A stretch of DNA of 64,000 bases from Bacillota bacterium (GTDB lineage Bacteria > Bacillota > JAAYKD01): NCBI GenBank assembly GCA_963666425.2, contig OY762825.2, positions 288,001 through 352,000 of the forward strand, given 5' to 3'. Made by a program: the position numbers and the translations under genes. The notes beneath the pieces were generated by a model. It saw only the letters and a program-made list of their open reading frames with translations, made no database searches and had not been told where the DNA came from. Shown here piece after piece: positions 41,499 to 60,955 of this stretch. Every line of letters starts with the position of its first letter. The first letter of the stretch is position 1.

Positions 41499-41861
41499 CT
41501 ATAACAAGCGGATCTTTTCTATCAAACAGCGCAGAGCGGCTGTTTCCTCTTCATTCAATTTAACAGCAACTTGCTCTAAAATCAGCTGAAATTCCTTCGC
41601 GATGGTCTCGGCAGCTTGATTGCGCTGTAACAGATGCAGTACCGCTTCATGCTGTTCCAGATGTGCGACCAAACGCTGCACCTGATCGTGCACTGCCTGG
41701 CGGGAGACGGCAAACGCTGCCGCCACTTCAGCCAACGTGTAATCATCGGAATAGTACATACTGAGCATCTCCTGCTGCCTGTCTGTAAAAAGCTCAGCAT
41801 AGCAATCAATCAGCTGATTGATCGTTTCAGTTTGCTGCAGTTTGTCCTCCATAACATTCAC
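41499..41861 (-). CDS. ylxM: YlxM family HTH protein
   Basis: YAELFTDRQ...YYSDDYTLAEVA...VSRQAVHD; immediately upstream of ffh. Confidence 0.9.
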   Translation of the reverse strand: MNVMEDKLQQTETINQLIDCYAELFTDRQQEMLSMYYSDDYTLAEVAAAFAVSRQAVHDQVQRLVAHLEQHEAVLHLLQRNQAAETIAKEFQLILEQVAVKLNEEETAALRCLIEKIRLL

Positions 41862-41875
41862 CCGTTGCTTTTTTA

Positions 41876-41937
41876 GTCAACTTATTTCTTTGACATCATA
41901 GCATGCTGGAATGAGCTTGTCAAGTATTTTTGTTGAC
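41876..41937 (-). promoter_or_regulatory. ylxM-ffh sigma-A promoter with two GTCAA-N9-TTGAC palindromes
   Basis: TTGACA (41918-41923)-N17-TATGAT (41895-41900); palindromes at 41876-41894 and 41919-41937. Confidence 0.7.
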
Positions 41938-41961
41938 AACACTATTTTTTATAAATAATGC

Positions 41962-41990
41962 TTGCCAAAGCTTGCCAATTGTGCTATATT
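41962..41990 (+). promoter_or_regulatory. Sigma-A promoter of the thr leader
   Basis: TTGCCA-N17-TATATT with extended TG. Confidence 0.7.
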
Positions 41991-42020
41991 ATTAAAAATC
42001 TTGATGAGGGAGATTTTCCT

Positions 42021-42080
42021 ATGATGAATTTCATTCAGTCTGCCAATACAACCACTACCCGAAAGGGCTTGCTTTTGTAG
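42021..42080 (+). CDS. Thr-rich leader peptide MMNFIQSANTTTTRKGLLL
   Basis: RBS GAGGGAG; ACA-ACC-ACT-ACC at 42048-42059; upstream of a terminator and the ThrRS gene. Confidence 0.8.
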   Translation: MMNFIQSANTTTTRKGLLL

Positions 42081-42147
42081 TTTGTTGCCACTGCAACCAA
42101 CGACAGAGGCTAAGTCCTCTTCGTCGTGTGGTTGCGAGGATAAAAGT

Positions 42148-42193
42148 AAACACCTTGCAAACACAAGTATTTTGTGTTGGCAGGGTGTTTTTT
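42148..42193 (+). terminator. Attenuator terminator upstream of the ThrRS gene
   Basis: AAACACCTTGC-A-AACACAA / TTGTGTT-G-GCAGGGTGTTT stem followed by TTT. Confidence 0.85.
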
Positions 42194-42217
42194 ATTGGAA
42201 AGGAGGTGTTTGTCCCG

Positions 42218-42367
42218 ATGCTGAAAGGAATTTGTCTGGTAAGCCTGCTGGAATCAGATTCCCAGGGACAATTGACCGTCAACTTCTTAAAAATTCCGAT
42301 CGAAAAAAATTTAAGGAGAGACGAAAAAAATGAACGAAAAAATGAATTTAGCCCATCTCTTGTCTGA
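42218..42367 (+). CDS. Small hypothetical protein (49 aa) overlapping the ThrRS start
   Basis: AAAGGAGGTG RBS 9 nt before ATG 42218; no recognisable family. Confidence 0.45.
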   Translation: MLKGICLVSLLESDSQGQLTVNFLKIPIEKNLRRDEKNERKNEFSPSLV

Positions 42368-43874
42368 TGTGGTGCAAGAACTCTTCCCGGAAGCAGTCGA
42401 TTCTGTTTACAAGGAAACAGATGAAGGGTTTTACTGCGATTACGATCTGGCAAGACCATTGAATCCGCAGCGTTTCGCTGCGATCATAGGCGGCATGAAA
42501 GGAAAAAATCCTTCCGCTGTTTATGAGCTTTCACATTTTTCCGGTGTCTATCTGGATGACGATGCAGCTAAAAAAATGTTGCAGCGGATTTATGTACTGG
42601 CATTCCACAGCCAAGTAGAATTAAACAATTACAAAGCTTTGGCAGCCGAAGCCGCGTTGCATGATCACAAGCTGCTGGGGCAGCAATTAAAGCTGTTTTC
42701 CAGTTGTGATGAAGTCGGACAAGGTTTGATCCTGTGGCACCCAAATGGCGCTATGCTGCGTCATATGCTGGAGAAATTTGGGCAGGAAGCGCATCTGCTC
42801 AATGACTATCAATGGGTGTATTCACCACACATCGGGAAAGCATCACTTTGGCAAACCTCCGGCCATCTGGATTTTTATCAGGATGCAATGTATCATCCCA
42901 TTCAAATCGATCAGGAAGCTTATTACCTAAAGCCAATGAATTGCCCCTTTCACATTTGCATTTACAACAGCGAGCTGCGCTCTTACCGCGAATTGCCCAT
43001 GCGGTTGGCAGAGTATGGCACCGTTTATCGCTACGAGTTATCCGGTACATTAAGCGGACTATCCCGTGTGCGTGGCTTTACTCAGGACGATGCTCACATC
43101 ATCTGCACAAAAGAACAGATCCAAGAAGAAGTTACCCGCGCCTTAAAATTCTCACTTTATATCCTGCGCAGCTTCGGTTTCGAGCAGTTCACGGCCTATA
43201 TCGCCACAAAACCGGTCAACAAGTCCATCGGAGCCATCGCAGACTGGGAGCAAGCCATTGCGGTTTTGCAGAATTCGGTGCTTGCCTGTGGCTTAAGCTA
43301 CCAAATTGACGAAGGTGGCGGTGCCTTTTACGGGCCGAAGATCGACCTGAAGCTGAAAGATTCGCTCAACCGGGAATGGCAATGCAGCACGATCCAGTTT
43401 GATTTTAATTTACCCAGCCGCTTTGCGATGTCATATATCGCGGCGGATGGAGAAAAACATCAGCCGCTGATGGTGCACAGAGCCTTATATGGCAGTTTTG
43501 AACGATTTATCTCCCTATTGATCGAGCATTACAAAGGTGAATTCCCCTTCTGGTTATCCCCTCTGCAATTCGGTCTGCTTTCTGTGCGGGAGACGCATAC
43601 GGCTGCCTGTCGGGCGCTGGCTGTGGTATTGAAAAAAAAGGGATTTCGGGTAGCAATCAATGCGGAAGACAGCAATCTGCGCAGCAAAATCAAAGCGTTT
43701 GAATTGAAAAAAACGCCCTATATGCTGATCATCGGCGATAAAGAGGCAGCGAATGGCACTTTCTCCGTTCGCAGCCGTCGGAATGGTGATTTAGGCGAAA
43801 TGACGGTGGAACGCTTGTGTGAGTATCTAAAAGATGAAATCGCTCAAGGGATCCCCCAGTATATCTTTGAATAA
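42330..43874 (+). CDS. thrS: Threonyl-tRNA synthetase, N-terminally truncated
   Basis: DHKLLG, TSGHLDFY, KPMNCPFH, RVRGFTQDDAH, GAFYGPKID, TIQFDF, VHRALYGSFERF; anticodon domain present. Confidence 0.93.
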   Translation: MNEKMNLAHLLSDVVQELFPEAVDSVYKETDEGFYCDYDLARPLNPQRFAAIIGGMKGKNPSAVYELSHFSGVYLDDDAAKKMLQRIYVLAFHSQVELNNYKALAAEAALHDHKLLGQQLKLFSSCDEVGQGLILWHPNGAMLRHMLEKFGQEAHLLNDYQWVYSPHIGKASLWQTSGHLDFYQDAMYHPIQIDQEAYYLKPMNCPFHICIYNSELRSYRELPMRLAEYGTVYRYELSGTLSGLSRVRGFTQDDAHIICTKEQIQEEVTRALKFSLYILRSFGFEQFTAYIATKPVNKSIGAIADWEQAIAVLQNSVLACGLSYQIDEGGGAFYGPKIDLKLKDSLNREWQCSTIQFDFNLPSRFAMSYIAADGEKHQPLMVHRALYGSFERFISLLIEHYKGEFPFWLSPLQFGLLSVRETHTAACRALAVVLKKKGFRVAINAEDSNLRSKIKAFELKKTPYMLIIGDKEAANGTFSVRSRRNGDLGEMTVERLCEYLKDEIAQGIPQYIFE

Positions 43875-43897
43875 GCTGCTTTGAAAAATTCAGAGAT

Positions 43898-43942
43898 CAA
43901 TCCCATTTTTAGCGAAGCAGAACCTTGCCAAGAATGGGATTG
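43898..43942. terminator. Hairpin between convergent thrS and ade
   Basis: CAATCCCATT...AATGGGATTG stem. Confidence 0.6.
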
Positions 43943-43948
43943 CTCTTT

Positions 43949-49761: not shown

Positions 49762-49794
49762 TCTGTGCCAACACCCCCGTCCCCTTGGCACATT
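49762..49794. repeat. REP-like palindrome, copy 1
   Basis: TCTGTGCCAACACCCCCGTCCCCTTGGCACATT. Confidence 0.8.
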
Positions 49795-52700
49795 AGATGA
49801 GATTTGATTTTTGCAACAGTTGCTGCGCAATCACTGCTACTTCTGCACGGGTAATGAAGTCCCGCGGTGCCAGTTCTGTACTGCTTCTGCCGGAGACGAT
49901 TCCTGTACTGAGACAGGCTGCCACATCCGCTTTGGCATAACCTGCAATGTCTTCGCTGTCGCGGAAACGAACAAAAAGGGTATTGACATCGTCCTGTGTC
50001 AGAATCGGATACAGTTTGGTCAACTTCATCGCAGAGCCAATCATGGTCATCGCCTGTTCGCGGCTGATTTTGTCCTGCGGTCCAAATTGGCCGTTGCTAT
50101 AACCGGCAACAATGCCATAGTTACTGGCGGTTTCAATATATCCGCTATACCAGACGCCTACTGCAACATCACTGAATCGGCTGCTGCCGATCGTCTCCTG
50201 TAAACCCAATGCCCGCACCAAAATGGCAGCAAATTCAGCTCGGCTGATCGAACGCTCCGGCTCATACTGCGTGGTGCTGACACCGCTGACAATCAATCGG
50301 GATCCCAGGTCGTTGATGGCTGCGCTTGCCCAGTGGCTGAGCGTATCCGCAAACTCCATCGGATGATAAATTACGGCATAGGTACTGTTGGTCAGACTAT
50401 TGATCTTCGCATAATATTTTCCTTCGATGACAACGATCGTGGTTGGCACGTGGCTGAAGCTGCCATCCGAATTCAGTACAATTCCCGTGGTGACTCTGGC
50501 GGGGTCGATGCCTTCCGGTATGGCGATCGTTCTCTCCACATAACCGTTGAATTTGGCAACCTCCACAGTTTTCTCACCGCTGGTGCAGGTGATTGCAAAA
50601 TCAACCGGTTCTACCACGATTTGATATTGATTTCGGCTGGCAGTGTCCCGCACGATTCTCGCTGTATCATTGGAGGAGGAAGAGATGGTAATGTTGACCT
50701 GAATGTCTTTTAATTCAATTTGCGTTCCAAATTGCTGCGATACATCGAGGATACTAATCTGATTTGCCGGCAATGTATAGGTGATATTTTCTGTCCTAAT
50801 CTGCAGGACGGCTTCTTTCTCTTCCATGGCTTTCACTGTTTGCCCATTCAGGTTGCTGACGAAGATATCCGAAGTATTCGCAAAAGGTATGGTAACAATG
50901 GCATGATTGCCTTCTTGCGCTAATAGTCCCTCCAGACGGGTGTCGTCTACTAAGATCGTCTCGACGGTTTTCTCCTCTACGGTTGTGATCGCTGAATTTC
51001 CGGCATCCTGTTTGACACCATTCACTTCAATTATCACCGGTGAAGGTGGTATTACTGCATCTTCCATATCGGTCGTAATCGATTCTGGTGTAAAGACTGC
51101 CATATTACCCGCTTCGTCTTTGACCAGAACATTGAGGTAATAGGTTGTATGGCTTCTCAAATTACTGACGGTCACTTCCGACAGATTCGCAGTCCAATCC
51201 GTGGCGACACTACCGCTGCGCATTGCTTCTGTCACAGTTGCAATCGTATCCTGTAAGCAATAGATTACCCGATATTGTAAAGTTCCTTGTGCACTGCAGC
51301 TGTCAGTGGCCGCAGTCCAAGTTAAAGCAGCGGAATTGACTGCAATCTCCCCCGTTGTAAGTGTTCCGCCGGCTCCTGTCTGCGGTGCGGTTTGGTCATG
51401 CAGCGTCAGGATACCGCTGGATGCGCTGAAGGCAACCGCATTTCCGGCAATATCCAACAGGGCCTGAGCATTGCTCGGTTTGATCTGAATGGTTTCCAGA
51501 CCGGCTGGAATCCCATTCAGTGTAATAAATACTCGTAAAACCGTTTCTTCGCCGCTAAGGTCACTGGCGCTGGCTTCCAACAAAGAATCCGCTTTTTTAA
51601 CAGAGCTGATCGCCGCCGTGAGCGCGGAGCCGTTATTTTGTGCGAAAACAAGATTCAATTCAGCAGGACTCACCAGCCTGGTTAACGTGACCGGACCAAA
51701 GATCCCTTCGGAGAAAGTCAGGTCAACAAAGGAATTGTCTGTGCTTAAAACAGCAGCCGTGATCGATGGCAAAATGGTGTCAATGAAAATCCCATCGGTA
51801 GCTGCGCTGTTGTTCAGGGTTAAAATCGCATCATTACCTGCTAAATCCTTGATACTGGCACCGTTTAAGGTAATCGAAGCTGTTAACGCAAGGCCATCGG
51901 CATCATTTTCTCCTGACGCAACAGTATAAACAAATCTTAAAGCAGACGAACCGCTGCCAGAGAGATAAGCTGTATCGGCCATACTATTACCAACAATCAC
52001 TCCCAGGATTGGGTTGCTGCCATTTGGAACAAAGATGGGTTCTGAAAAATCTACGATGAATTCCAACTCATCAGCCGCGATATAGTATCCATTTGCCGGT
52101 ACGCTGACACTGGTAATGTAGGGTGCTATCGCATCCAACAAGATTGCCGCCGTGCTGCTGACGTTGTGCAGACGAAGATAGGCCGGATTACCAACCGTAT
52201 CGTGAATGGATGAGCCAATGATTGTGATCTCCGGAGCCAACAGAATACCATCGCTGTCAGAATCACCGGCAGAGACCGTATAACGGAACAACAGCGTATT
52301 CGTGTTGCTGCCATTGACGTAATTTGCCTCTACTGTTCTGGAGTCAAGGGTCACTGTTAAAAATGGCTGTTCTCCTGAAATAAGGATGAAATCACCGACA
52401 TGAACGGTCTCGGAGAACTGCACATAAAAGTCCAGGTTCTCCCCTGTTTTGTAGGTCTTATTCGGGGGCAGTGTCACAGCAGTTACGACCGGTGCGATAC
52501 CGTCGATCAGGATCCCATCTGTGTTGCCTGCATTTTGTAGGGAAAGATTGGCCGGATTTCCTGCTGCATCTTTCAGGCTTGCACCTGATGTTGTCAGAGC
52601 AGCGGCCAAGCGGATCCCGTCCGAGTCAAAATCCCCTTCAGCAACCGTATAACGGAAGACAAGAGATTCCGTTCCGCTGCCATTAACATATTCTGCGTTA

Positions 52701-55700
52701 ACGGGTGCAGCAGTAATGGTCAAGCCTAATAACAATGAGGAATTCAAAGAATCCAACAAGGATTCCAATTCAACCGGTTCCGAAAACACAACCGTGAATT
52801 CAAGCAAGTCGCTAATTCCATAACTGCCATTCAGAGGTAGGATCAGACTGACAATATTCGGTGCAATGCCATCAATCAGAACACCGGTTGAAACTGGAAT
52901 ATTGCTGATTGCATTCACGGCATCATTACCTGCCAGATCTTTGATACTGCAGCCGTTCACTGAAAAATCGGAGTCAATGTCGATCCCGTCATCGTCGAAA
53001 TCTCCGGAAGCAACCAGATAGGCAAAATTCAAAGCCGTGGAATTGCTGCCAGTCGTGAATTCAGCCCGGACTACTTGATTACCGATCGTCAATGTCAAAT
53101 AGGGTTTCATGCTGAGACCCTGCGTTAAGTCTTCCACTTTGACAGTTTCTGAGAAATTGACAGTAAACGTCAAGACTGATCCTGCTTTATAATTGCTATT
53201 GACCGGTATCACGAGTGAAGTGACAAACGGCAGAACACCATCCACCCTGACTGCCGTGGTAGATGCCGCTTGATTGATCGTCAAGTTTGCGTGATTTCCC
53301 GCCGCGTCATATAGAAGATAAGTTCCGTTTATGATTGCGCTGGCCAGCACAATTCCATCGGTATCGAGATCACCCTCGCAAATCGTGTAGCCAAACAACA
53401 AGGCATTGCTGCCACTGCCGCTGAGATACTGCGCTTTCTGCTCCGCAGATCCGATTGTCAGGCTCAGGTATGGTTTTGTTTCCGATACTTGCAGCAGATC
53501 TTCCACAGTGATTGTTTCCGTGAAAGTAACCGTAAAGATTAGTGTCTCACCAATACAGTAAGTGTCGTCAAGCGGCACGCTGAGCGAAAGAACGGCAGGC
53601 GCGACTGCATCGACAGTCACGAAACTCGTACTGGTCATACCATGCAGGGTCAGCTCAGCCGGATTGCCGGCAAGATCACTGATCCCACTGCCTGCCGCTG
53701 CGATTGCTGCCGCATAGGCTATACCGTCTGTATCCAGATCATTTTCCTCAATGGTATATCGGAAAAGCAAGCTTGAGGAGCCGCTGCCGCTCGCATAATT
53801 GGCCTCCGCTTGTCTGCCGCCAATCGTCAAAAGCATATAGGGGGTGTTTGCTTCGATTTTGACCAGTTCTGAGAAGCGAACCATAAAGTCGAGTGTCTGA
53901 CCGGCTGTATAAACGCCATCGGCAGGAACAGACACACTGCTAACCGTTGGTGTGATGGCGTCTACCAAAACAGCTGTTGTGCTGCCGATATGATTCAGCG
54001 TCAGCGAGGCTGGATTGCCGGCCATATCCTGGATGGTTGTACTGATTGTAGAGATTGCATTCGCGAGCTGAATCCCATCGGTATCCTGCTCACCCGCAGC
54101 CACGGTATATCGGAAAGTTAAATTCTCTGTATTAATACCATCCAGGAAGCTTGCCAGCACCGGAGTGCTGCCAATGGTTAAACCAAGATACGCTGTACGA
54201 GTTACATACGGCAATTCTATTAAACTGATCGGTTCCGAGAAATGAACTGTAAAGATCAGGCTTTCACCGGTAATATAAGTATCTGGATCTGGCACGCTGA
54301 CGCCGATGATCACAGGGATGACTGCATCGACTTTGATGCCGACAGTTGGAGCAATTGCATTCAGCGTAAGGCTTGCAGCATTTCCTGCTGCATCTTTGAG
54401 ATTCTCGCCGACAGAGCGCAGTGCAGCTGCCAAAGCAATGCCATCTGTATCCAGCTGACCCGCTGTAACGGTATAATTAAACTGTAAAGCAGTCGTTCCG
54501 CTGCCGGAGAGATAAGCTGCATCGACTGTGCTTTCACCGACAGTGACGTTTAATACAAGGCTGCTTTCATTCGGCAGCAAGACAGGTTCCGAAAAATTGA
54601 CGGTAAAGCGCAGAGATTGCCCGATGATATAAATGCCATCGGCCGGAACATGAACAGACACGACCACTGGTTTGACTGCATCAACAAAAACTCCCGAAGT
54701 AGATGCAATTCCGGTCAGAGCAAGCTCGGCATCATTTCCGGCAGCGTCTTTCAGCGCAGAGCCAAGATTGAGCGCAAGCAAACCGACTGTGATACCGTCG
54801 GTATCCATCTGATTCTCCTGCACAATAGATGCAAAATTCAAAACAGTAGTTCCGCTGCCGGATGTATAGTCTGCGTTGACAGAACTGCCGCCGATGATCA
54901 GCTCCAACTTGAGACCGCTTGCTTCTGACAGCCAAACGATTTTAGAAAACTGGATGCTGAAATTCAAACTTTCACCGGCAAGATAGGTATCTGCGGCCGG
55001 CACACTGACACTCGTTACCTGCGGCAGAACTGCATCGACCAGAACAGCGGCTGTGTCACCCACTGAACTTAACGTCAAATCCGCTTCATTTGTCGCTAAA
55101 TCGCAAATCTTACTGCTTACAGCATCAATCGGTGAAAGGACGGTAATGCCGTCACTGTCAAAATCGTTCCTGACAATCGTATAAGAAAATACAAGAGCAT
55201 TCGTATTGCTGCCGCTGCGATATTCCGCCTCTACGGTATTACTGCCTATCCTGAGTGGAAGATAGGCTTGACTGACGCTTCCGCCCAACAGACTGGTCAC
55301 AGCGACCGGTTCCGAAAAATGAACGGTAAAGAGCAGCGTTTCTGCCAGCTTGTAAGTTTTGGCAGCAGGAACGGTAACCTGAGTTATTACTGGCCGCACC
55401 GCGTCCACCAGGACGGAGGCAGTAGATTCAAGCGGCAGATTCGGATTGATTGTATTACCGGCAGCATCAAAAAAATCATAGGTTAGTTTATTTAATGCGC
55501 CGGCAACGACGATTCCATCCGGATCCAGGTCGTTTTCTGCAATGGTATAACGGAATAAAAGCGCACTGCTGCCGCTGCCGCTGAGATAATCGGCTTTCAC
55601 TGTCGAACTTTCGAGAGTGAGTTCGAGGTAAGGATTACCCCCTAAATTCGGGGATGGATTATTCAGGAAGACGTCTTCCGAGCAGTTGAGGATGAAATCG

Positions 55701-58700
55701 AGTTGGCTGCCGATGCTATAAACTCCTGCAACGGGTAAACTGAGCGAGCTGACGGTTGGCACAATCGCATCCACATAAATCAGGTTCGTGTTAATGACTT
55801 CGTTCAGCACCCGGCTGGCTTCATTGCCGGCAGCATCGAAGAGACTTTCTCCCGTACCGCTGATCAGTGTGCCCAAGCCAATACTGTCCGTGTCCGTATC
55901 ACCAGACAAAACGGTATAACGGAATAAGATCGCATTGCTGCCGCTGCCGCTGAGATAGTTGGCATGAACAATGGATTGACCGATCGTTAGGATTAGGTGC
56001 AGCGGATCGGAGTCCGGTCGGGTTTCTGTTAGGGTGACATTTTCAGAAAAATACACCGTAAAATCCAGCGTTTCTCCCATCCGATAGGTATCTGCAGCAG
56101 GCACAGTCACACTGGTGATGGACGCTGCCACTGCATCGACGGTCACCAAACTCGTATTGCCCATGCCGTGCAGGGTCAGCTCAGCCGGATTGCCGGCAAG
56201 GTCTGTCAGCCAGCTTCCCGCCGTTGCAATCAGCGGTTCACAGCTGATCCCATCCATGTCGAGATCATTCTGCAGCACAGTATAACGGAAAAGCAGGTTT
56301 GGAGAACCGCTGCCGCTGCTATAATTTACTTGTACTTGCCTGCCGCCAATCGTCAGCAGTAAATAGGGATTATTCGTGCTAACCGATTCCGAAAACACCA
56401 CCGTAAAGTCGAGTGTTTGACCGGTTGTATAAACACCATTGGCAGGAACAGCTACACTGCTAACCGTTGGGATTATGGCGTCTACTAAAACAGCTGTCGT
56501 ACTACCAACGTTATTCAGTGTCAGCAACGCTTGATTGTTAGCAGCGTCCTGAATTGCAGCGCCCGCCAAGTGAATGGCAGTCGCTAGTTCTACGCCGTTA
56601 TCATCTGCATCATCGGCTGCAATGGTGTAAGTGAAAGTAAGGTTTTCCGAACCGCTGCCACTAAGGTAAGATACTTGCACGGTTGTAGAACCGATTGATA
56701 GGCTGAGATAAGCCTGACTGTCTTGATCTGCCAAAACAAGATTGACAGCTTCCGAGAAGTTCACGATAAAGGAAAGCCTGTTGCCAATAATGTAAGTATC
56801 CGGACTCGGTACCGTGACACTGTTGACCACAGGAGCGACTGCATCCACTTGGACCCCGGCAGTGGAGGCGATTGAATTCAGCGTCAGCAGCGCAGCATTG
56901 CCTGCGGAATCCGTGATATTTTCACCGATTGAGGAAAGGGAGGTAATAACAATCCCATCCGTGTCAAGCTGACCTTCTAAGACGGTATATATGAACTGCA
57001 AAGAAGACGTCGCGCTGCCGGAGGAATAGGCTGCATTCACCATGCTGCCGCCAATGTTGATTTCTAAAGCGGAGTTACTTCCATTCACCACCGCAACATT
57101 CTCAGAAAAATTCACGTTGAAAGAAAGGGTTGCTCCGGTACGGTAAGTCGCTGCAGCCGGTACGTTAACGGAAAGAACAGTCGGTGCTTGCTGATCGACG
57201 GTATAGATTTCTCCCGAGGTAAATGCAGCAGCTGCAATCGCATTGCCTGCGCTGTCACAGATACCGGTGCCGCCCGCATTCAGATCCAGACGCAAACTGC
57301 CGCTGCCGGACACGGAAGAAAGCGTGACATCATAAATCGCTCCGCTTACGGAAGATACAGAGATGATGCTGGCGCTGACTGTTCCACTCGTGACAAGTGC
57401 GAAATCGTTGGTATCCACACCGGTAACAATCTTACTGAAGGTCACACGGTAAACCAGATTGGAAGCATTGGTCAATGACCCTAGAGGCTGTTTGCGCAGG
57501 ATGGAAGCAACTGCAGGTGCTGTGTCATCATTAATGATTACTGTTATTACCTGCTGATCGCCGGACTCAATACCGTTTAATATTGCAGAGATATCGATCA
57601 GAATCGTCTCGTTCTCTTCCACCAAGCCGTCATCGGTTGAGGTAATCGTAAACCCGCCTTCTGTCATGCCGGCAGAAATAACAAGAGATGCTGCTGCGGT
57701 ATAATCGGTATCACGTGTTGCTGTTCCGCTGTAGCTGAATGAAACAGTGGTATCTTGGCTGTAGGCGGCAGACAGCGCCGCAGTGACGGTTGCCGTACCG
57801 CTGCTTTCCATTATTAACGAATTTTTGATGGATAATGTCACTGTCGGTATGGTAGGATTCCATTGAGCATAGAGCGTTGCATTACCGAAAACAAGATAAT
57901 CAGAACCTACAATATAATTTGTTCCCGAACCGTTGCTGAGCGTATTCCAGCCGCCAAATTCCGCGCCTGATTTTGCCAACTCACCGGAATTACCGGCAAC
58001 AGCAATCGTCAATCCGGATGGATAAAATCCAGTATCGATCGGAGCCGAACCGGTGGTGTTCAGATTACCGTCGTAAGTGATCCGATATAAGTTTGTGATG
58101 ACCGGAGGCGTGAAAGCAAGGATGGGGAAACCAAAATTCTTTAGACTGAGATCAGCGTTCCAGGTTGTGCTGCCGTGATTCAGTGTGGTCAAGAATGTAT
58201 TGCTCTGTAATTCAGCAACGGTTTGCGGGATGGAATCCCCAGTTAATTTTCCTGCCTGACTGGAACCGACTCCTTTTGCTGCTAAAACTGTTGCATTACG
58301 AACGTGCGCTGCTTGGCTATTATGATAGCTTCGGACGATCGTGCCACCATCGCTGTAACCAATCAGACCACCTAAGTATTCCGCTACGCTGCAGGTCACA
58401 TTACCTGTAGCATAACAAGCTGTGATGGTTGTAGAAGGTACACCTGCGCCATCAATGCCAAGGTATCCGATCAAACCGCCGGCAGAAGGATATTCTCCTC
58501 CGTTTGCGATTACACTGCTTGTTGAATAACAATCCGTGATCGTGCCGCTAATCTGCGCCATGCCGAGCAATCCACCTGCGCTTGCATCTGTACCACCTTT
58601 GATACTGCCGGACGAAGAACAATTGTTGATCGTACTATAGGCAAAGGAACCCGCTATACCGCCGACATAGGTATAGTTATCCGCACTGGAAATATAACCC

Positions 58701-60673
58701 GTCGTAAAACAATTGGAAATATGGCTTGTGATCCCGATATAACCGCTGACTGCTCCTGCCAAACCACCAACCGAAGCGCTATTATAACCGGAATAAATTG
58801 AAACATTCGCTAAACCAAGATTCTGGAGAGTGCCACCATAAATATAACCAAATAAACCAGCATTACCAAATGTTGTGTTAGGACTCGTGGATGTGCCAAT
58901 TGCTAAGTTAGTGATCATGTGATTGTTGCCATCAAAAACGCCATCAAAAAAAATCAGATTGCTGTTACTTGTGGCTATGGGTATCCATTGAATTTGCGCC
59001 AGATCAAGATTCGCCATTAATTTATACTGACAGCTGCGATAGGTCGCATTTGAATTGTTCAACAAATCAGAAAGATAAGCCAGCTGTTCCGCATTGCCAA
59101 TCAAATAGGGAGAAGCCACAGAACCATCGCCAGCGGCGAAGGTTGCTGCCTTCGATCCATCCCAAGTATCAGTAGCTGCATATACCGTTGCAGTAAAACT
59201 CTTAGTCGCAGTAGTGGAACCATCGCTGACCAGAATGGCAAAAGTATCACTGCCGCAATAACCTGCTGCCGGTGTATAAGAAATCATACCGCCTGGCGAA
59301 ATGTCCGCCGAACCGGTAGCTGCGGTTGCTGCAAAAAAGGATAAGCTGCCATGCGCAGGAGCGGATTGCTGTGACCAAGTCAAGCTTTGGCTCGCGTCGG
59401 TATCGCTGGCATGCAAATAGGGTTTGAGATCGAACGCCGATTCGCTGGCAAAGACGGTCACCGTTTTCACGGCGCTGCTATAGGTAGGTGTCGTATTCGA
59501 AATGTAGCCGACACCGATCCCAGTCAACATCGGGTATCCCTGATTGACATTGCCGCTGTCTTTCTGCCAGACATTTGAGCCGGTATTGGTGTTTAAAAGC
59601 TGATAAAAAGCATCACTCTGCATTTCAGTGCTGCTCTTTGCGAATGGTGCACTCGAACTGTTGTTCGTACCCACTCCAACGGCAATGACAGTGCTATTCC
59701 AGTAGCTTGTATTGGTTACTCCGGAAACCATAAAACCAACAAATCCGCCTACTTTGGTGGCTAACCCAGCAGCAGCGCTGACATTGCCGGTTGCGTAACA
59801 ATTAGTTATGATGGCATTTGTCTTGCCAACACTGCCCCAATAGCCGATCAAACCGCCAGCCATAGCGGATCCTGTACAGTTCACCGTACCCAACGCATAA
59901 CAATTAGTCACAGCAGCAGCAGTGTCATTGTTATTGCGCCCAATCAAACCGCCGGCTTGAGTGTATAGTGTTGTTGATGTGAGATCAACTGCAGTGCTGC
60001 CGGCACCAGTGATATCGACAACAGTATAAGATGAGGTTACTGTTGCAGGGTTAACATGCCCAATCAATCCACCGATATAGCTGTTGTCTGCCAAACTGCT
60101 GATCGTTCCGGTCGCGTAACAATTGCTGACTGTTCCGTTTATATACCCAACTAGACAGCCAATTCTGCTGCCAACAGTTGAATAATTCACATAAATAGCT
60201 GCATTCACTACACCTATATTGCGGATAGACGCGGTGTTCTGCGTAAAGCCAGTATAACCGAACAAGCCGTTGAATTTCAGTGTGGTTACATAAGAAGACG
60301 AAGTCCCGATCGCAAGATTACTTACTTTATGATTCTGACCGTCAAAATTGCCGTAAAAATCCTTTGTCGCTGTTCCAATCGGAGTCCATTGCAAGTGATT
60401 CAGATCAATATCGGCGGTAAGCTGATAATATGCATTCTGATAAGCTGCATTCCCACCACTGACTAAGGTAGCCAAATACGCCAACTGCTCTCCGGTGGCA
60501 ATTTGATAAGGCTCGCCCACTGTTCCCGTTCCACCGGAAAATGAAGCGGCGACGCTGCCATCCCATACATCCGTTGCAGCTGATACTGTAGGTAATAAAT
60601 TGGCATTTAAACCCCAGAAAAGAAAAACAGATAAAAGTAAGATCAGAACTTTGCTGGATAAATGGTTTCTCAT
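49793..60673 (-). CDS. Giant secreted SLH-anchored surface protein (GLUG-type regions, Ig-like repeats)
   Basis: Signal peptide; two GLUG-like regions; Calx-beta-like segment; 15 tandem ~120-aa repeats; FN3-like segment; three SLH motifs (ISRAE, ISREQ, ITRAE). Confidence 0.9.
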   Translation of the reverse strand: MRNHLSSKVLILLLSVFLFWGLNANLLPTVSAATDVWDGSVAASFSGGTGTVGEPYQIATGEQLAYLATLVSGGNAAYQNAYYQLTADIDLNHLQWTPIGTATKDFYGNFDGQNHKVSNLAIGTSSSYVTTLKFNGLFGYTGFTQNTASIRNIGVVNAAIYVNYSTVGSRIGCLVGYINGTVSNCYATGTISSLADNSYIGGLIGHVNPATVTSSYTVVDITGAGSTAVDLTSTTLYTQAGGLIGRNNNDTAAAVTNCYALGTVNCTGSAMAGGLIGYWGSVGKTNAIITNCYATGNVSAAAGLATKVGGFVGFMVSGVTNTSYWNSTVIAVGVGTNNSSSAPFAKSSTEMQSDAFYQLLNTNTGSNVWQKDSGNVNQGYPMLTGIGVGYISNTTPTYSSAVKTVTVFASESAFDLKPYLHASDTDASQSLTWSQQSAPAHGSLSFFAATAATGSADISPGGMISYTPAAGYCGSDTFAILVSDGSTTATKSFTATVYAATDTWDGSKAATFAAGDGSVASPYLIGNAEQLAYLSDLLNNSNATYRSCQYKLMANLDLAQIQWIPIATSNSNLIFFDGVFDGNNHMITNLAIGTSTSPNTTFGNAGLFGYIYGGTLQNLGLANVSIYSGYNSASVGGLAGAVSGYIGITSHISNCFTTGYISSADNYTYVGGIAGSFAYSTINNCSSSGSIKGGTDASAGGLLGMAQISGTITDCYSTSSVIANGGEYPSAGGLIGYLGIDGAGVPSTTITACYATGNVTCSVAEYLGGLIGYSDGGTIVRSYHNSQAAHVRNATVLAAKGVGSSQAGKLTGDSIPQTVAELQSNTFLTTLNHGSTTWNADLSLKNFGFPILAFTPPVITNLYRITYDGNLNTTGSAPIDTGFYPSGLTIAVAGNSGELAKSGAEFGGWNTLSNGSGTNYIVGSDYLVFGNATLYAQWNPTIPTVTLSIKNSLIMESSGTATVTAALSAAYSQDTTVSFSYSGTATRDTDYTAAASLVISAGMTEGGFTITSTDDGLVEENETILIDISAILNGIESGDQQVITVIINDDTAPAVASILRKQPLGSLTNASNLVYRVTFSKIVTGVDTNDFALVTSGTVSASIISVSSVSGAIYDVTLSSVSGSGSLRLDLNAGGTGICDSAGNAIAAAAFTSGEIYTVDQQAPTVLSVNVPAAATYRTGATLSFNVNFSENVAVVNGSNSALEINIGGSMVNAAYSSGSATSSLQFIYTVLEGQLDTDGIVITSLSSIGENITDSAGNAALLTLNSIASTAGVQVDAVAPVVNSVTVPSPDTYIIGNRLSFIVNFSEAVNLVLADQDSQAYLSLSIGSTTVQVSYLSGSGSENLTFTYTIAADDADDNGVELATAIHLAGAAIQDAANNQALLTLNNVGSTTAVLVDAIIPTVSSVAVPANGVYTTGQTLDFTVVFSESVSTNNPYLLLTIGGRQVQVNYSSGSGSPNLLFRYTVLQNDLDMDGISCEPLIATAGSWLTDLAGNPAELTLHGMGNTSLVTVDAVAASITSVTVPAADTYRMGETLDFTVYFSENVTLTETRPDSDPLHLILTIGQSIVHANYLSGSGSNAILFRYTVLSGDTDTDSIGLGTLISGTGESLFDAAGNEASRVLNEVINTNLIYVDAIVPTVSSLSLPVAGVYSIGSQLDFILNCSEDVFLNNPSPNLGGNPYLELTLESSTVKADYLSGSGSSALLFRYTIAENDLDPDGIVVAGALNKLTYDFFDAAGNTINPNLPLESTASVLVDAVRPVITQVTVPAAKTYKLAETLLFTVHFSEPVAVTSLLGGSVSQAYLPLRIGSNTVEAEYRSGSNTNALVFSYTIVRNDFDSDGITVLSPIDAVSSKICDLATNEADLTLSSVGDTAAVLVDAVLPQVTSVSVPAADTYLAGESLNFSIQFSKIVWLSEASGLKLELIIGGSSVNADYTSGSGTTVLNFASIVQENQMDTDGITVGLLALNLGSALKDAAGNDAELALTGIASTSGVFVDAVKPVVVSVHVPADGIYIIGQSLRFTVNFSEPVLLPNESSLVLNVTVGESTVDAAYLSGSGTTALQFNYTVTAGQLDTDGIALAAALRSVGENLKDAAGNAASLTLNAIAPTVGIKVDAVIPVIIGVSVPDPDTYITGESLIFTVHFSEPISLIELPYVTRTAYLGLTIGSTPVLASFLDGINTENLTFRYTVAAGEQDTDGIQLANAISTISTTIQDMAGNPASLTLNHIGSTTAVLVDAITPTVSSVSVPADGVYTAGQTLDFMVRFSELVKIEANTPYMLLTIGGRQAEANYASGSGSSSLLFRYTIEENDLDTDGIAYAAAIAAAGSGISDLAGNPAELTLHGMTSTSFVTVDAVAPAVLSLSVPLDDTYCIGETLIFTVTFTETITVEDLLQVSETKPYLSLTIGSAEQKAQYLSGSGSNALLFGYTICEGDLDTDGIVLASAIINGTYLLYDAAGNHANLTINQAASTTAVRVDGVLPFVTSLVIPVNSNYKAGSVLTFTVNFSETVKVEDLTQGLSMKPYLTLTIGNQVVRAEFTTGSNSTALNFAYLVASGDFDDDGIDIDSDFSVNGCSIKDLAGNDAVNAISNIPVSTGVLIDGIAPNIVSLILPLNGSYGISDLLEFTVVFSEPVELESLLDSLNSSLLLGLTITAAPVNAEYVNGSGTESLVFRYTVAEGDFDSDGIRLAAALTTSGASLKDAAGNPANLSLQNAGNTDGILIDGIAPVVTAVTLPPNKTYKTGENLDFYVQFSETVHVGDFILISGEQPFLTVTLDSRTVEANYVNGSNTNTLLFRYTVSAGDSDSDGILLAPEITIIGSSIHDTVGNPAYLRLHNVSSTAAILLDAIAPYITSVSVPANGYYIAADELEFIVDFSEPIFVPNGSNPILGVIVGNSMADTAYLSGSGSSALRFVYTVASGENDADGLALTASITLNGASIKDLAGNDAILTLNNSAATDGIFIDTILPSITAAVLSTDNSFVDLTFSEGIFGPVTLTRLVSPAELNLVFAQNNGSALTAAISSVKKADSLLEASASDLSGEETVLRVFITLNGIPAGLETIQIKPSNAQALLDIAGNAVAFSASSGILTLHDQTAPQTGAGGTLTTGEIAVNSAALTWTAATDSCSAQGTLQYRVIYCLQDTIATVTEAMRSGSVATDWTANLSEVTVSNLRSHTTYYLNVLVKDEAGNMAVFTPESITTDMEDAVIPPSPVIIEVNGVKQDAGNSAITTVEEKTVETILVDDTRLEGLLAQEGNHAIVTIPFANTSDIFVSNLNGQTVKAMEEKEAVLQIRTENITYTLPANQISILDVSQQFGTQIELKDIQVNITISSSSNDTARIVRDTASRNQYQIVVEPVDFAITCTSGEKTVEVAKFNGYVERTIAIPEGIDPARVTTGIVLNSDGSFSHVPTTIVVIEGKYYAKINSLTNSTYAVIYHPMEFADTLSHWASAAINDLGSRLIVSGVSTTQYEPERSISRAEFAAILVRALGLQETIGSSRFSDVAVGVWYSGYIETASNYGIVAGYSNGQFGPQDKISREQAMTMIGSAMKLTKLYPILTQDDVNTLFVRFRDSEDIAGYAKADVAACLSTGIVSGRSSTELAPRDFITRAEVAVIAQQLLQKSNLI

Positions 60674-60955
60674 ATTGCTTCGCTCCTTATTCTTCAATTG
60701 CTTTAAACTCCAAGGGCAGATTCTTCAGCTGATCATATTTAATTCAAAACAACAAGAACAATTAACCCTAAAATCTCAACTAGCTTTATTCTTAATTCTA
60801 CGAATACAGAAATAATCCTTGTTAAAAAATCTAAATACAAAAATATATTTCAAATAAAAAAGCATAATTCTTATACGCAAACAGCGTGTTTAAGAATTAT
60901 GCTTTTAGCTACAATGCAAGAAGTATCCGTCCTCATATTTGCCAGATGATGCAGG

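Follow-up and report, generated by a model that had tools for sequence, protein, structure and literature searches.

How is a second gene for threonyl-tRNA synthetase (ThrRS) controlled in a bacterium of the phylum Bacillota? The question is raised by a stretch of 64,000 nucleotides (nt) of contig OY762825.2 (positions 288,001 to 352,000, forward strand; NCBI GenBank assembly GCA_963666425.2), hereafter the window, in which the gene of a ThrRS paralog (thrS; 514 amino acids (aa), 42330-43874, plus strand, in window positions) follows a structured leader at 41962-42196. In the textbook view, aminoacyl-tRNA synthetase (aaRS) genes of the Bacillota are under the control of T-boxes, and leader-peptide attenuation belongs mainly to the Proteobacteria and Actinobacteria. 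A first-pass annotation of this DNA had proposed that an attenuator based on threonine (Thr) codons stands here in place of a T-box, ahead of a back-up ThrRS. We consider it likely that the leader is a ribosome-mediated transcription attenuator, which responds to charged tRNA-Thr and governs a second ThrRS gene, one whose product is deficient in editing.

Architecture of the leader

The leader is bounded by the divergently transcribed ylxM-ffh operon (ylxM, 41499-41861, minus strand) on one side and by the 514-aa frame on the other, and all of its features lie on the plus strand. A promoter-like site at 41962-41990 comprises a putative -35 box TTGCCA, a 17-nt spacer and an extended -10 box TG-n-TATATT (10 of 12 matches); read by eye, a TGnTATAAT-like -10 box also lies about 25-35 nt 5' of the leader ATG in orthologs. 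The ribosome-binding site (RBS) GAGGGAG (42006-42012) stands 8 nt before the ATG at 42021, and the orthologs have GAGG-type sites 8-10 nt 5' of theirs. This ATG opens an upstream open reading frame, uORF1 (42021-42080), of 19 codons and a TAG, with the predicted leader peptide MMNFIQSANTTTTRKGLLL. Its codons 10-13, ACA ACC ACT ACC (42048-42059), form the Thr run that we propose as the sensor.

Downstream of the run lies a central hairpin, H2 (42060-42123), with strand 2a at 42060-42088 and strand 2b at 42093-42123; the uORF1 stop codon falls inside 2a. It is followed by segment 3, GUGUGGUUGCGAGG (42126-42139), for which there are three alternative partners: 2b (42094-42103, helix H3), the Thr codons (42049-42055, helix H1) and the 5' arm of the terminator (42153-42166, helix H4, the antiterminator). 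The intrinsic terminator itself, H5 (42149-42196), consists of an 18-base-pair (bp) interrupted stem (42149-42189) and then TTTTTTATT to 42196; a simple terminator scan of the window missed it. The leader RNA folds at -78.3 kcal/mol (z -6.9), and 0 of 200 shuffles were equally good. The promoter, RBS, four-Thr leader and terminator named in the first-pass annotation are therefore all present, its coordinates being right to within a few bases.

At the gathering score, an Rfam scan of the whole window gave no T-box, no Thr_leader (RF00506) and no other family. At E<=10 over 41940-42360 there was again no T-box (RF00230) and no RF00506, as had been anticipated for the T-box, and the only matches were at chance level, RsaD and bglG-cis-reg (21 bits each) among them.

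Conservation of the threonine run

For comparison, 32 proteins of the paralog family were aligned (A1), and loci were collected from contigs of genomes and metagenomes. Of 62 family loci, 32 have an upstream frame that begins with ATG, is no longer than 50 codons and contains three or more Thr codons in a row; in a further locus, L047, the run reads T-T-I-T. With duplicates L132 (=L130) and L136 (=L056) removed, and with L047 and the window included, the collection comprises 32 distinct leaders, which were aligned with MAFFT (A2) and divided into subgroup A (17 leaders including the window; A3) and subgroup B (15 leaders; A4).

The run is 3-7 codons long in 31 of these 32 leaders (seven in one, six in one, five in ten, four in 13 and three in six) and two codons long in the remaining one. 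Lack of conservation of the run among orthologs, named at the outset as grounds for abandoning the Thr-codon attenuator, was thus looked for in 32 leaders and not found. Synonymous codons are mixed (ACC 79, ACT 39, ACA 10 and ACG 7 among 135 run codons), and outside the run the uORF1 peptides vary freely. The stop codon of uORF1 follows 0-6 codons past the run. At the level of sequence, we regard the elements of the leader and their conservation as established.

It could be that the Thr codons are kept only for pairing, and that the attenuator is switched by a ligand of the central hairpin: a protein, perhaps ThrRS itself, or else a tRNA or a small molecule. The sequence of the hairpin is indeed conserved beyond the needs of pairing, with invariant and near-invariant columns, and the Thr-codon stretch is complementary to segment 3, with which it pairs in the full-length fold of 30 of the 32 leaders. 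Moreover, E. coli ThrRS binds its own leader. That this enzyme regulates its own expression is also cited in a survey of attenuators (Naville and Gautheret 2010; PMC2965389). Yet positions 1 and 2 of the Thr codons show little or no variation in A2 and position 3 is variable, which gives a three-base conservation period; as third positions vary and the first two do not, the run bears the signature of coding rather than of pairing. A start codon and RBS precede the run in 32 of 32 leaders, the length of the run changes by whole codons, and no Rfam riboswitch or T-box was matched in the leader. We therefore consider a ligand-switched hairpin unlikely, and take the run to be read by a ribosome.

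A covariance model (R1) built from the 32 leaders delimits the element further. It matched 35 of 66 family loci, with scores of 71-154 bits; two of these, L060 (Thr at three of six codons) and L065 (two Thr codons), were outside the seed. It matched 0 of 13 T-box loci, and L160 gave a weak match of 32.9 bits. In the genome of the window R1 found only the leader itself, in single copy. In the other nine genomes of the class there was no further match at E<=1e-4, one match of 23.6 bits (E 0.007, G002) lying above that threshold. A 29-bit match was considered as a second attenuator and rejected, being a terminator between convergent genes. The search of 150 sampled genomes of the phylum returned nothing but one match of 35.6 bits, which lies inside a coding region on the opposite strand and hence is spurious.

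Mutually exclusive helices

The alignments point to a conserved design in which four mutually exclusive helices form a chain, 2a:2b, 2b:3, 3:4 and 4:5, the last being the terminator. All 32 leaders contain this chain. Its first, second and last helices are strongly supported; the evidence for 3:4 is weaker in the subgroup to which the window belongs. Pair counts were made on structures derived from per-sequence duplexes, for which slid controls were 25-58% paired. By this measure about 90% of cells are paired in helix 2a:2b, with compensatory change at 12 pairs across the two subgroups; the corresponding values are 87-96% and 7 pairs for 2b:3, and 95-98% and 11 pairs for the terminator. We regard the covariation of these three helices, as it appears in the alignments, as established. 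Helix 2a:2b was better than shuffles in 32 of 32 leaders and 2b:3 in 29 of 32. Left unaided, RNAalifold gave 2b:3 together with the terminator; of the 23 pairs, 15 show compensatory change.

The putative antiterminator, 3:4, takes a different form in each subgroup. Subgroup B has a duplex of 10-16 bp (mean -19 kcal/mol) that was better than shuffles in 14 of 15 leaders, and subgroup A an invariant core of 6 bp with 3-4 further pairs (mean -11.4 kcal/mol). In subgroup A, segment 3 is nonetheless the sole strong upstream complement of the terminator 5' arm (-12 to -14 kcal/mol, as against -2 to -8 kcal/mol elsewhere), and no upstream stretch pairs well with the 3' arm.

Here our results depart from the first-pass annotation, which had assigned the role of antiterminator to a pairing of 42063-42078 with 42140-42156. 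The window can indeed form this pairing (-12.2 kcal/mol, p 0.015 against shuffles), but across the orthologs it is better than shuffles in just 2 of 32; it is seen in some masked folds (described below) and costs the terminator only 1-2 bp. Stretch 42063-42078 in fact belongs to the 5' strand of the central hairpin, which is conserved; the partner that the terminator 5' arm has kept across orthologs is 42126-42139.

A proposed switch driven by the ribosome

How these helices might be coupled to the supply of charged tRNA-Thr can be pictured as follows. Transcription would start near 41997, and uORF1 would be translated while RNA polymerase produces the pairing segments. When Thr-tRNA is scarce, the ribosome would stall on the Thr codons, just 5' of 2a, so that the central hairpin could form and hold 2b; by covering the Thr codons, the stalled ribosome would also remove an alternative partner of segment 3. 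Free segment 3 (42126-42139) could then pair with the terminator 5' arm (42153-42166) and allow read-through into uORF2, a second upstream frame described below, and thrS. When Thr-tRNA is plentiful, the ribosome would reach the stop codon inside 2a and melt the central hairpin, and the freed 2b would capture segment 3; the terminator would form and the transcript would end at about 42190-42196. With no ribosome on the leader, the Thr codons and the central hairpin would together keep segment 3 sequestered, and termination would again be expected. The positions of the ribosome, the timing of these events and the response to threonine are inferred.

In modelled folds of 32 transcripts ending at the terminator loop, a ribosome was represented by a 5' mask that reached 12 nt beyond the first base of the codon in the A site. 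With the ribosome at the first or middle Thr codon, the central hairpin and the antiterminator 3:4 formed in 32 of 32 leaders each, and 2b:3 in none (0/32). At the last Thr codon the counts were 25, 27 and 5 of 32, respectively. With the ribosome at the stop codon the pattern was largely reversed: central hairpin 2/32, antiterminator 13/32 and 2b:3 21/32. Folded at full length and with no ribosome, the leaders showed the Thr-codon pairing in 30/32, the central hairpin in 32/32 and the terminator in 30/32.

Several results weigh against this switch. The 3:4 helix of subgroup A beat composition shuffles in only 3 of 17 leaders (mean z -0.96), and its six core pairs never covary. The Thr codons and segment 3 likewise do not covary, and their pairing beat shuffles in 8 of 32 leaders (in a separate test by subgroup, 10 of 17 in A and 2 of 15 in B). 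In 10 of 32 leaders the uORF1 stop lies only 0-1 codons past the Thr run, where a stalled and a finished ribosome would differ by a few bases. When segment 3 was shuffled, an antiterminator of at least five pairs still appeared in 510 of 640 folds (2b:3 in 166 of 640), so its presence in 32 of 32 masked folds discriminates little. The terminator is present in every full-length equilibrium fold of the window leader, and read-through must therefore be kinetic, as it is in other attenuators. Finally, the leader sequences are related to each other, so that all of these counts overstate the independent support.

The strength of the terminator in all equilibrium folds, together with the 133 nt and very strong RBS that separate it from thrS, would also suit an arrangement in which uORF1 and its terminator are an independent small gene or small RNA and thrS is expressed, without attenuation, from a promoter of its own further downstream. 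The element, however, keeps a fixed place beside the thrS paralog in 35 loci, is single-copy in the genome and, spurious matches aside, has no R1 match in the nine class relatives (at E<=1e-4) or the 150 sampled genomes of the phylum; conserved alternative helices would be purposeless for a free-standing gene, and the promoter scan reported no promoter-like site at 42197-42329. An independent gene is, in our judgement, the least probable of the explanations discussed here, and an attenuator of thrS the preferred one.

A leader or a T-box within one ThrRS family

In the closest relatives of this gene, the work that we ascribe to the leader is done by a T-box. Rfam detected a T-box at 13 of 20 family loci that have no Thr frame, as against 0 of 20 loci that have one, and in all three sister loci that were read the T-box specifier is ACC followed by A. 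On this distribution we consider the replacement of the T-box by the Thr-codon leader, as first proposed, to be established.

A quick maximum-likelihood tree of ThrRS (last 400 residues, 59 rows; supports are from the Shimodaira-Hasegawa-like approximate likelihood ratio test, SH-aLRT, only, with no bootstrap) was built with duplicates, partial genes and near-identical T-box loci left out (e.g. L149, L150, L152, L154, L155, L175 and L176). The paralog family groups together in it (48 rows, support 99) and is split into two T-box clades, with 5 and 7 rows, and a third clade, which has 36 rows (SH-aLRT 98). The last contains all 31 leader-bearing rows, and 3 further rows in it have an R1 match; the two members without the element are L147, whose 5' end is cut, and L067, which lies directly behind another gene. 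These sequences are most simply explained if the leader arose once, in a family that was regulated by T-boxes, although the direction of the change is left unproven by the tree.

The genome that carries the window also has T-boxes, of which 18 matches were found. One of them lies directly upstream of a full-length ThrRS gene (740 bits for the protein); at 70.9 bits this T-box is under the Rfam gathering score, but it is full length. Since the genome also encodes this full-length ThrRS, the thrS of the window is a second copy, and the notion of a back-up ThrRS is borne out to that extent. The same holds for other carriers, as a second, full-length ThrRS was present in 5 of 5 other carrier genomes checked; a T-box was found 5' of 3 of the 6 full-length thrS copies, the genome of the window included.

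The ThrRS paralog and the origin of the cassette

The 514-aa product comprises a catalytic core and an anticodon-binding domain, with a truncated editing domain and no TGS domain. It is identified as a threonine--tRNA ligase by TIGR00418 (541 bits, cut-off 383.65, model positions 126-564) and matches PF00587 and PF03129, and the Pfam scan gave no TGS and no tRNA_SAD match. Residues 66-505 align with residues 197-633 of E. coli ThrRS, and there is a weak alignment of 6-51 with 74-119. The TGS domain is absent, as are about 63 residues that correspond to E. coli 120-196 (editing domain, N2). Editing-site residues lie in the missing part. C205, H256 and H383 are invariant across the paralog family, and they align with the zinc ligands of the E. 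coli enzyme. As these three residues are kept, and the TGS domain and much of the editing domain are missing, the paralog is probably active but unable to proofread. It is not a threonine-poor enzyme: there are 15 Thr in its 514 aa, and its last 400 residues include 14, compared with 16 in the full-length ThrRS of the genome and 10-12 in five further full-length enzymes.

The family also has forms of about 404-411 aa, with catalytic core and anticodon-binding domain only, and forms of 573-588 aa in which the TGS domain alone is missing (loci L064, L066, L067, L080-L082, L101, L166 and L174-L176), so that trimming of the N-terminus has gone to different lengths.

In a genome of the same genus (ylxM 84% identical), only 185 nt separate ylxM from its direct neighbour, the adenine deaminase gene (L225 1498-3359). 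In the window the two genes are separated by an insertion of about 2 kb at about 41862-43948, which carries the promoter, uORF1, the terminator, uORF2 and thrS. None of 40 related genomes has an ortholog of the paralog, all their matches being full-length enzymes of 38-51% identity; in a large protein collection, by contrast, it belongs to a big family of ThrRS of 510-520 aa with 57-70% identity, mostly from Clostridia-type metagenome bins. Because the same-genus site is uninterrupted and 0 of 40 relatives carry the paralog, the sequences are most simply read as the result of a complete cassette having been gained. The base composition of the cassette is not foreign (G+C 0.43-0.50, and 0.44-0.55 around it). 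No mobile-element genes were seen at the insertion.

The taxonomic class of the window has only 10 species genomes in the collection, which places the organism in a small lineage of its phylum that has been little sampled; the other carriers of the cassette are almost all labelled as Clostridia-type bins.

The cassette, which looks acquired, encodes a divergent copy of an antibiotic target, and the leader might accordingly sense translation stress or antibiotics in general, like the leaders of inducible resistance genes; any slowing of the ribosome on uORF1, rather than a shortage of threonine as such, would then be enough for induction. We find this very improbable: the sole conserved feature of the leader peptide is a run of codons for the amino acid of the regulated enzyme itself, and the tRNA-Thr T-box of the sister clades, with its ACC specifier, points to the same signal. 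Charging of tRNA-Thr remains the signal that we favour.

A second conserved unit between terminator and thrS

The terminator is followed by an extended RBS-like sequence, GGAAAGGAGGUG (42197-42208), of which 42198-42208 is complementary to 11 nt of the 3' end of the organism's own 16S rRNA; it is the strongest RBS of the region and occupies invariant alignment columns. It precedes uORF2 (42218-42367), a conserved, putative frame of 49 codons with an ATG start that overlaps the start of thrS out of frame; in subgroup B the candidate start codons with suitable spacing are CUG and UUG. Within uORF2 an in-frame Thr codon, ACC (42275-42277), is invariant and is predicted to pair with an anticodon-like GGU at 42205-42207, within the RBS-like sequence, and this pairing adjoins a helix GUCCC:GGGAC (42212-42216 : 42265-42269). 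RNAalifold returned the GGU:ACC pairs in 23 of 23 sequences, and the adjacent GCYC:GRGC helix covaries (CG 11, UA 9, UG 3). The distance from a conserved GUG to the ACC is 39, 45, 51, 54, 57 or 69 nt, a multiple of 3, and is stop-free in 32 of 33 loci; L057 is the exception, L128 fits the spacing too by our own reading, and L066 is without the unit.

A hairpin, CUUCUUAAA / UUUAAGGAG (42283-42318), would sequester the RBS of thrS, AAGGAGAG (42313-42320). In minimum-energy folds the purine-rich thrS RBS lies within the hairpin in most of 21 leader-type loci (largely outside it in L055 and L048), and in most loci the 5' arm begins about 8 nt 3' of the ACC.

The unit is not confined to loci with the Thr-run leader. 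In the sister clades a homologue of uORF2 follows the T-box; it starts with ATG and encodes a peptide of 30-42 aa that is well conserved and closes with ...SDCxGxITR. One sister locus has ACT instead of ACC as the Thr codon. L067, which has neither leader nor T-box, retains the unit, and no uORF2-like frame is present upstream of the full-length thrS of the genome. The uORF2 peptides matched no Pfam or NCBIfam family, and no homologue was found among predicted proteins of 23-74 aa, a weak negative as such small frames are rarely called.

Two readings of uORF2 can be offered. It may couple the translation of thrS to its own by opening the hairpin, or it may be a second, translational sensor of threonine or an arrest peptide. 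An extension of the latter, in which the paralog is under two stacked threonine sensors read by ribosomes and the uORF2 module is older than the uORF1 sensor, is possible but tentative. A ribosome at or near the ACC of uORF2 would then keep the thrS RBS open and the RBS of uORF2 itself free. By the usual dimensions, however, a ribosome whose A site is occupied by the ACC extends no further than the first base pair of the hairpin, so a simple hunger-codon version of this idea is not obviously right.

Comparison with known systems

The mechanism proposed for the leader is of the classical kind; what is new is the swap of a T-box for a leader within one gene family, and the conserved uORF2. In the thr operon of E. 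coli, a translated leader with Thr codons (thrL), alternative hairpins and an intrinsic terminator sense charged tRNA-Thr through ribosome stalling. The window shares with thrL the short leader with its Thr run, the alternative hairpins and the intrinsic terminator, yet it gives no match to RF00506 even at E<=10, and the regulated gene here is a synthetase gene rather than biosynthetic genes. Moreover, the thrL leader mixes Thr and Ile codons, whereas the run in the window has Thr codons only, and the leader described here has one extra helix, the ribosome being thought either to spare or to melt the central hairpin. Control of a synthetase by a leader peptide filled with codons for its own amino acid is also known from E. 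coli pheST, with its attenuator and leader peptide pheM; pheST is a proteobacterial housekeeping gene, and the thrS described here an accessory paralog.

T-boxes (RF00230), as found before thrS of Bacillus subtilis, before the full-length thrS of the genome itself and in the sister clades, occupy the same position, serve the same gene family and respond to the same tRNA-Thr charging signal. B. subtilis thrZ carries a T-box leader as well. A T-box, however, reads uncharged tRNA by RNA-RNA contact without translation, and none of its defining motifs is present in the window leader. Since one family shows both solutions to the same signal side by side, it offers a clean natural case in which to ask why an RNA that senses tRNA is swapped for one that senses the ribosome.

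A direct precedent comes from bacilli, in which His leader peptides precede two hisS paralogs, hisZ and hisS*, according to the survey by Naville and Gautheret (2010; PMC2965389), where the replacement of T-boxes by 'regular' leader peptides in Firmicutes is stressed. There, as here, a leader-peptide attenuator in a Firmicute stands before an aaRS paralog where relatives use a T-box; the amino acid, gene family and lineage differ, and 'thrS' occurs 0 times in that paper. A duplicated, editing-defective ThrRS has likewise been described in Anabaena, where the second enzyme, T2, has impaired proofreading, is induced by low zinc and is expressed only when the main enzyme is disabled or overloaded by stress (Rubio et al. 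2015; PMC4787780). As described there, T2 responds to low zinc and has no Thr leader, and its editing domain is degenerate, whereas that of the window paralog is largely deleted. In the full-text literature outside subscription journals and supplements, we found no paper on a Thr leader before thrS of Clostridia or on the short ThrRS family.

The element is absent from Rfam, and R1 is usable for its annotation. An accessory ThrRS that probably lacks proofreading appears to travel as a self-contained 2-kb cassette with its own control region, which bears on how bacteria cope with threonine starvation or inhibition of the main ThrRS, and on the cost of mistranslation. uORF2 is a candidate for a new translational control element.

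Other features of the window

Further along the window, on the minus strand (49793-60697), lies an open frame of 3634 aa with many repeated domains and a C-terminus that, by eye, resembles surface-layer homology repeats. Judged by this sequence, it probably encodes a giant cell-surface protein.

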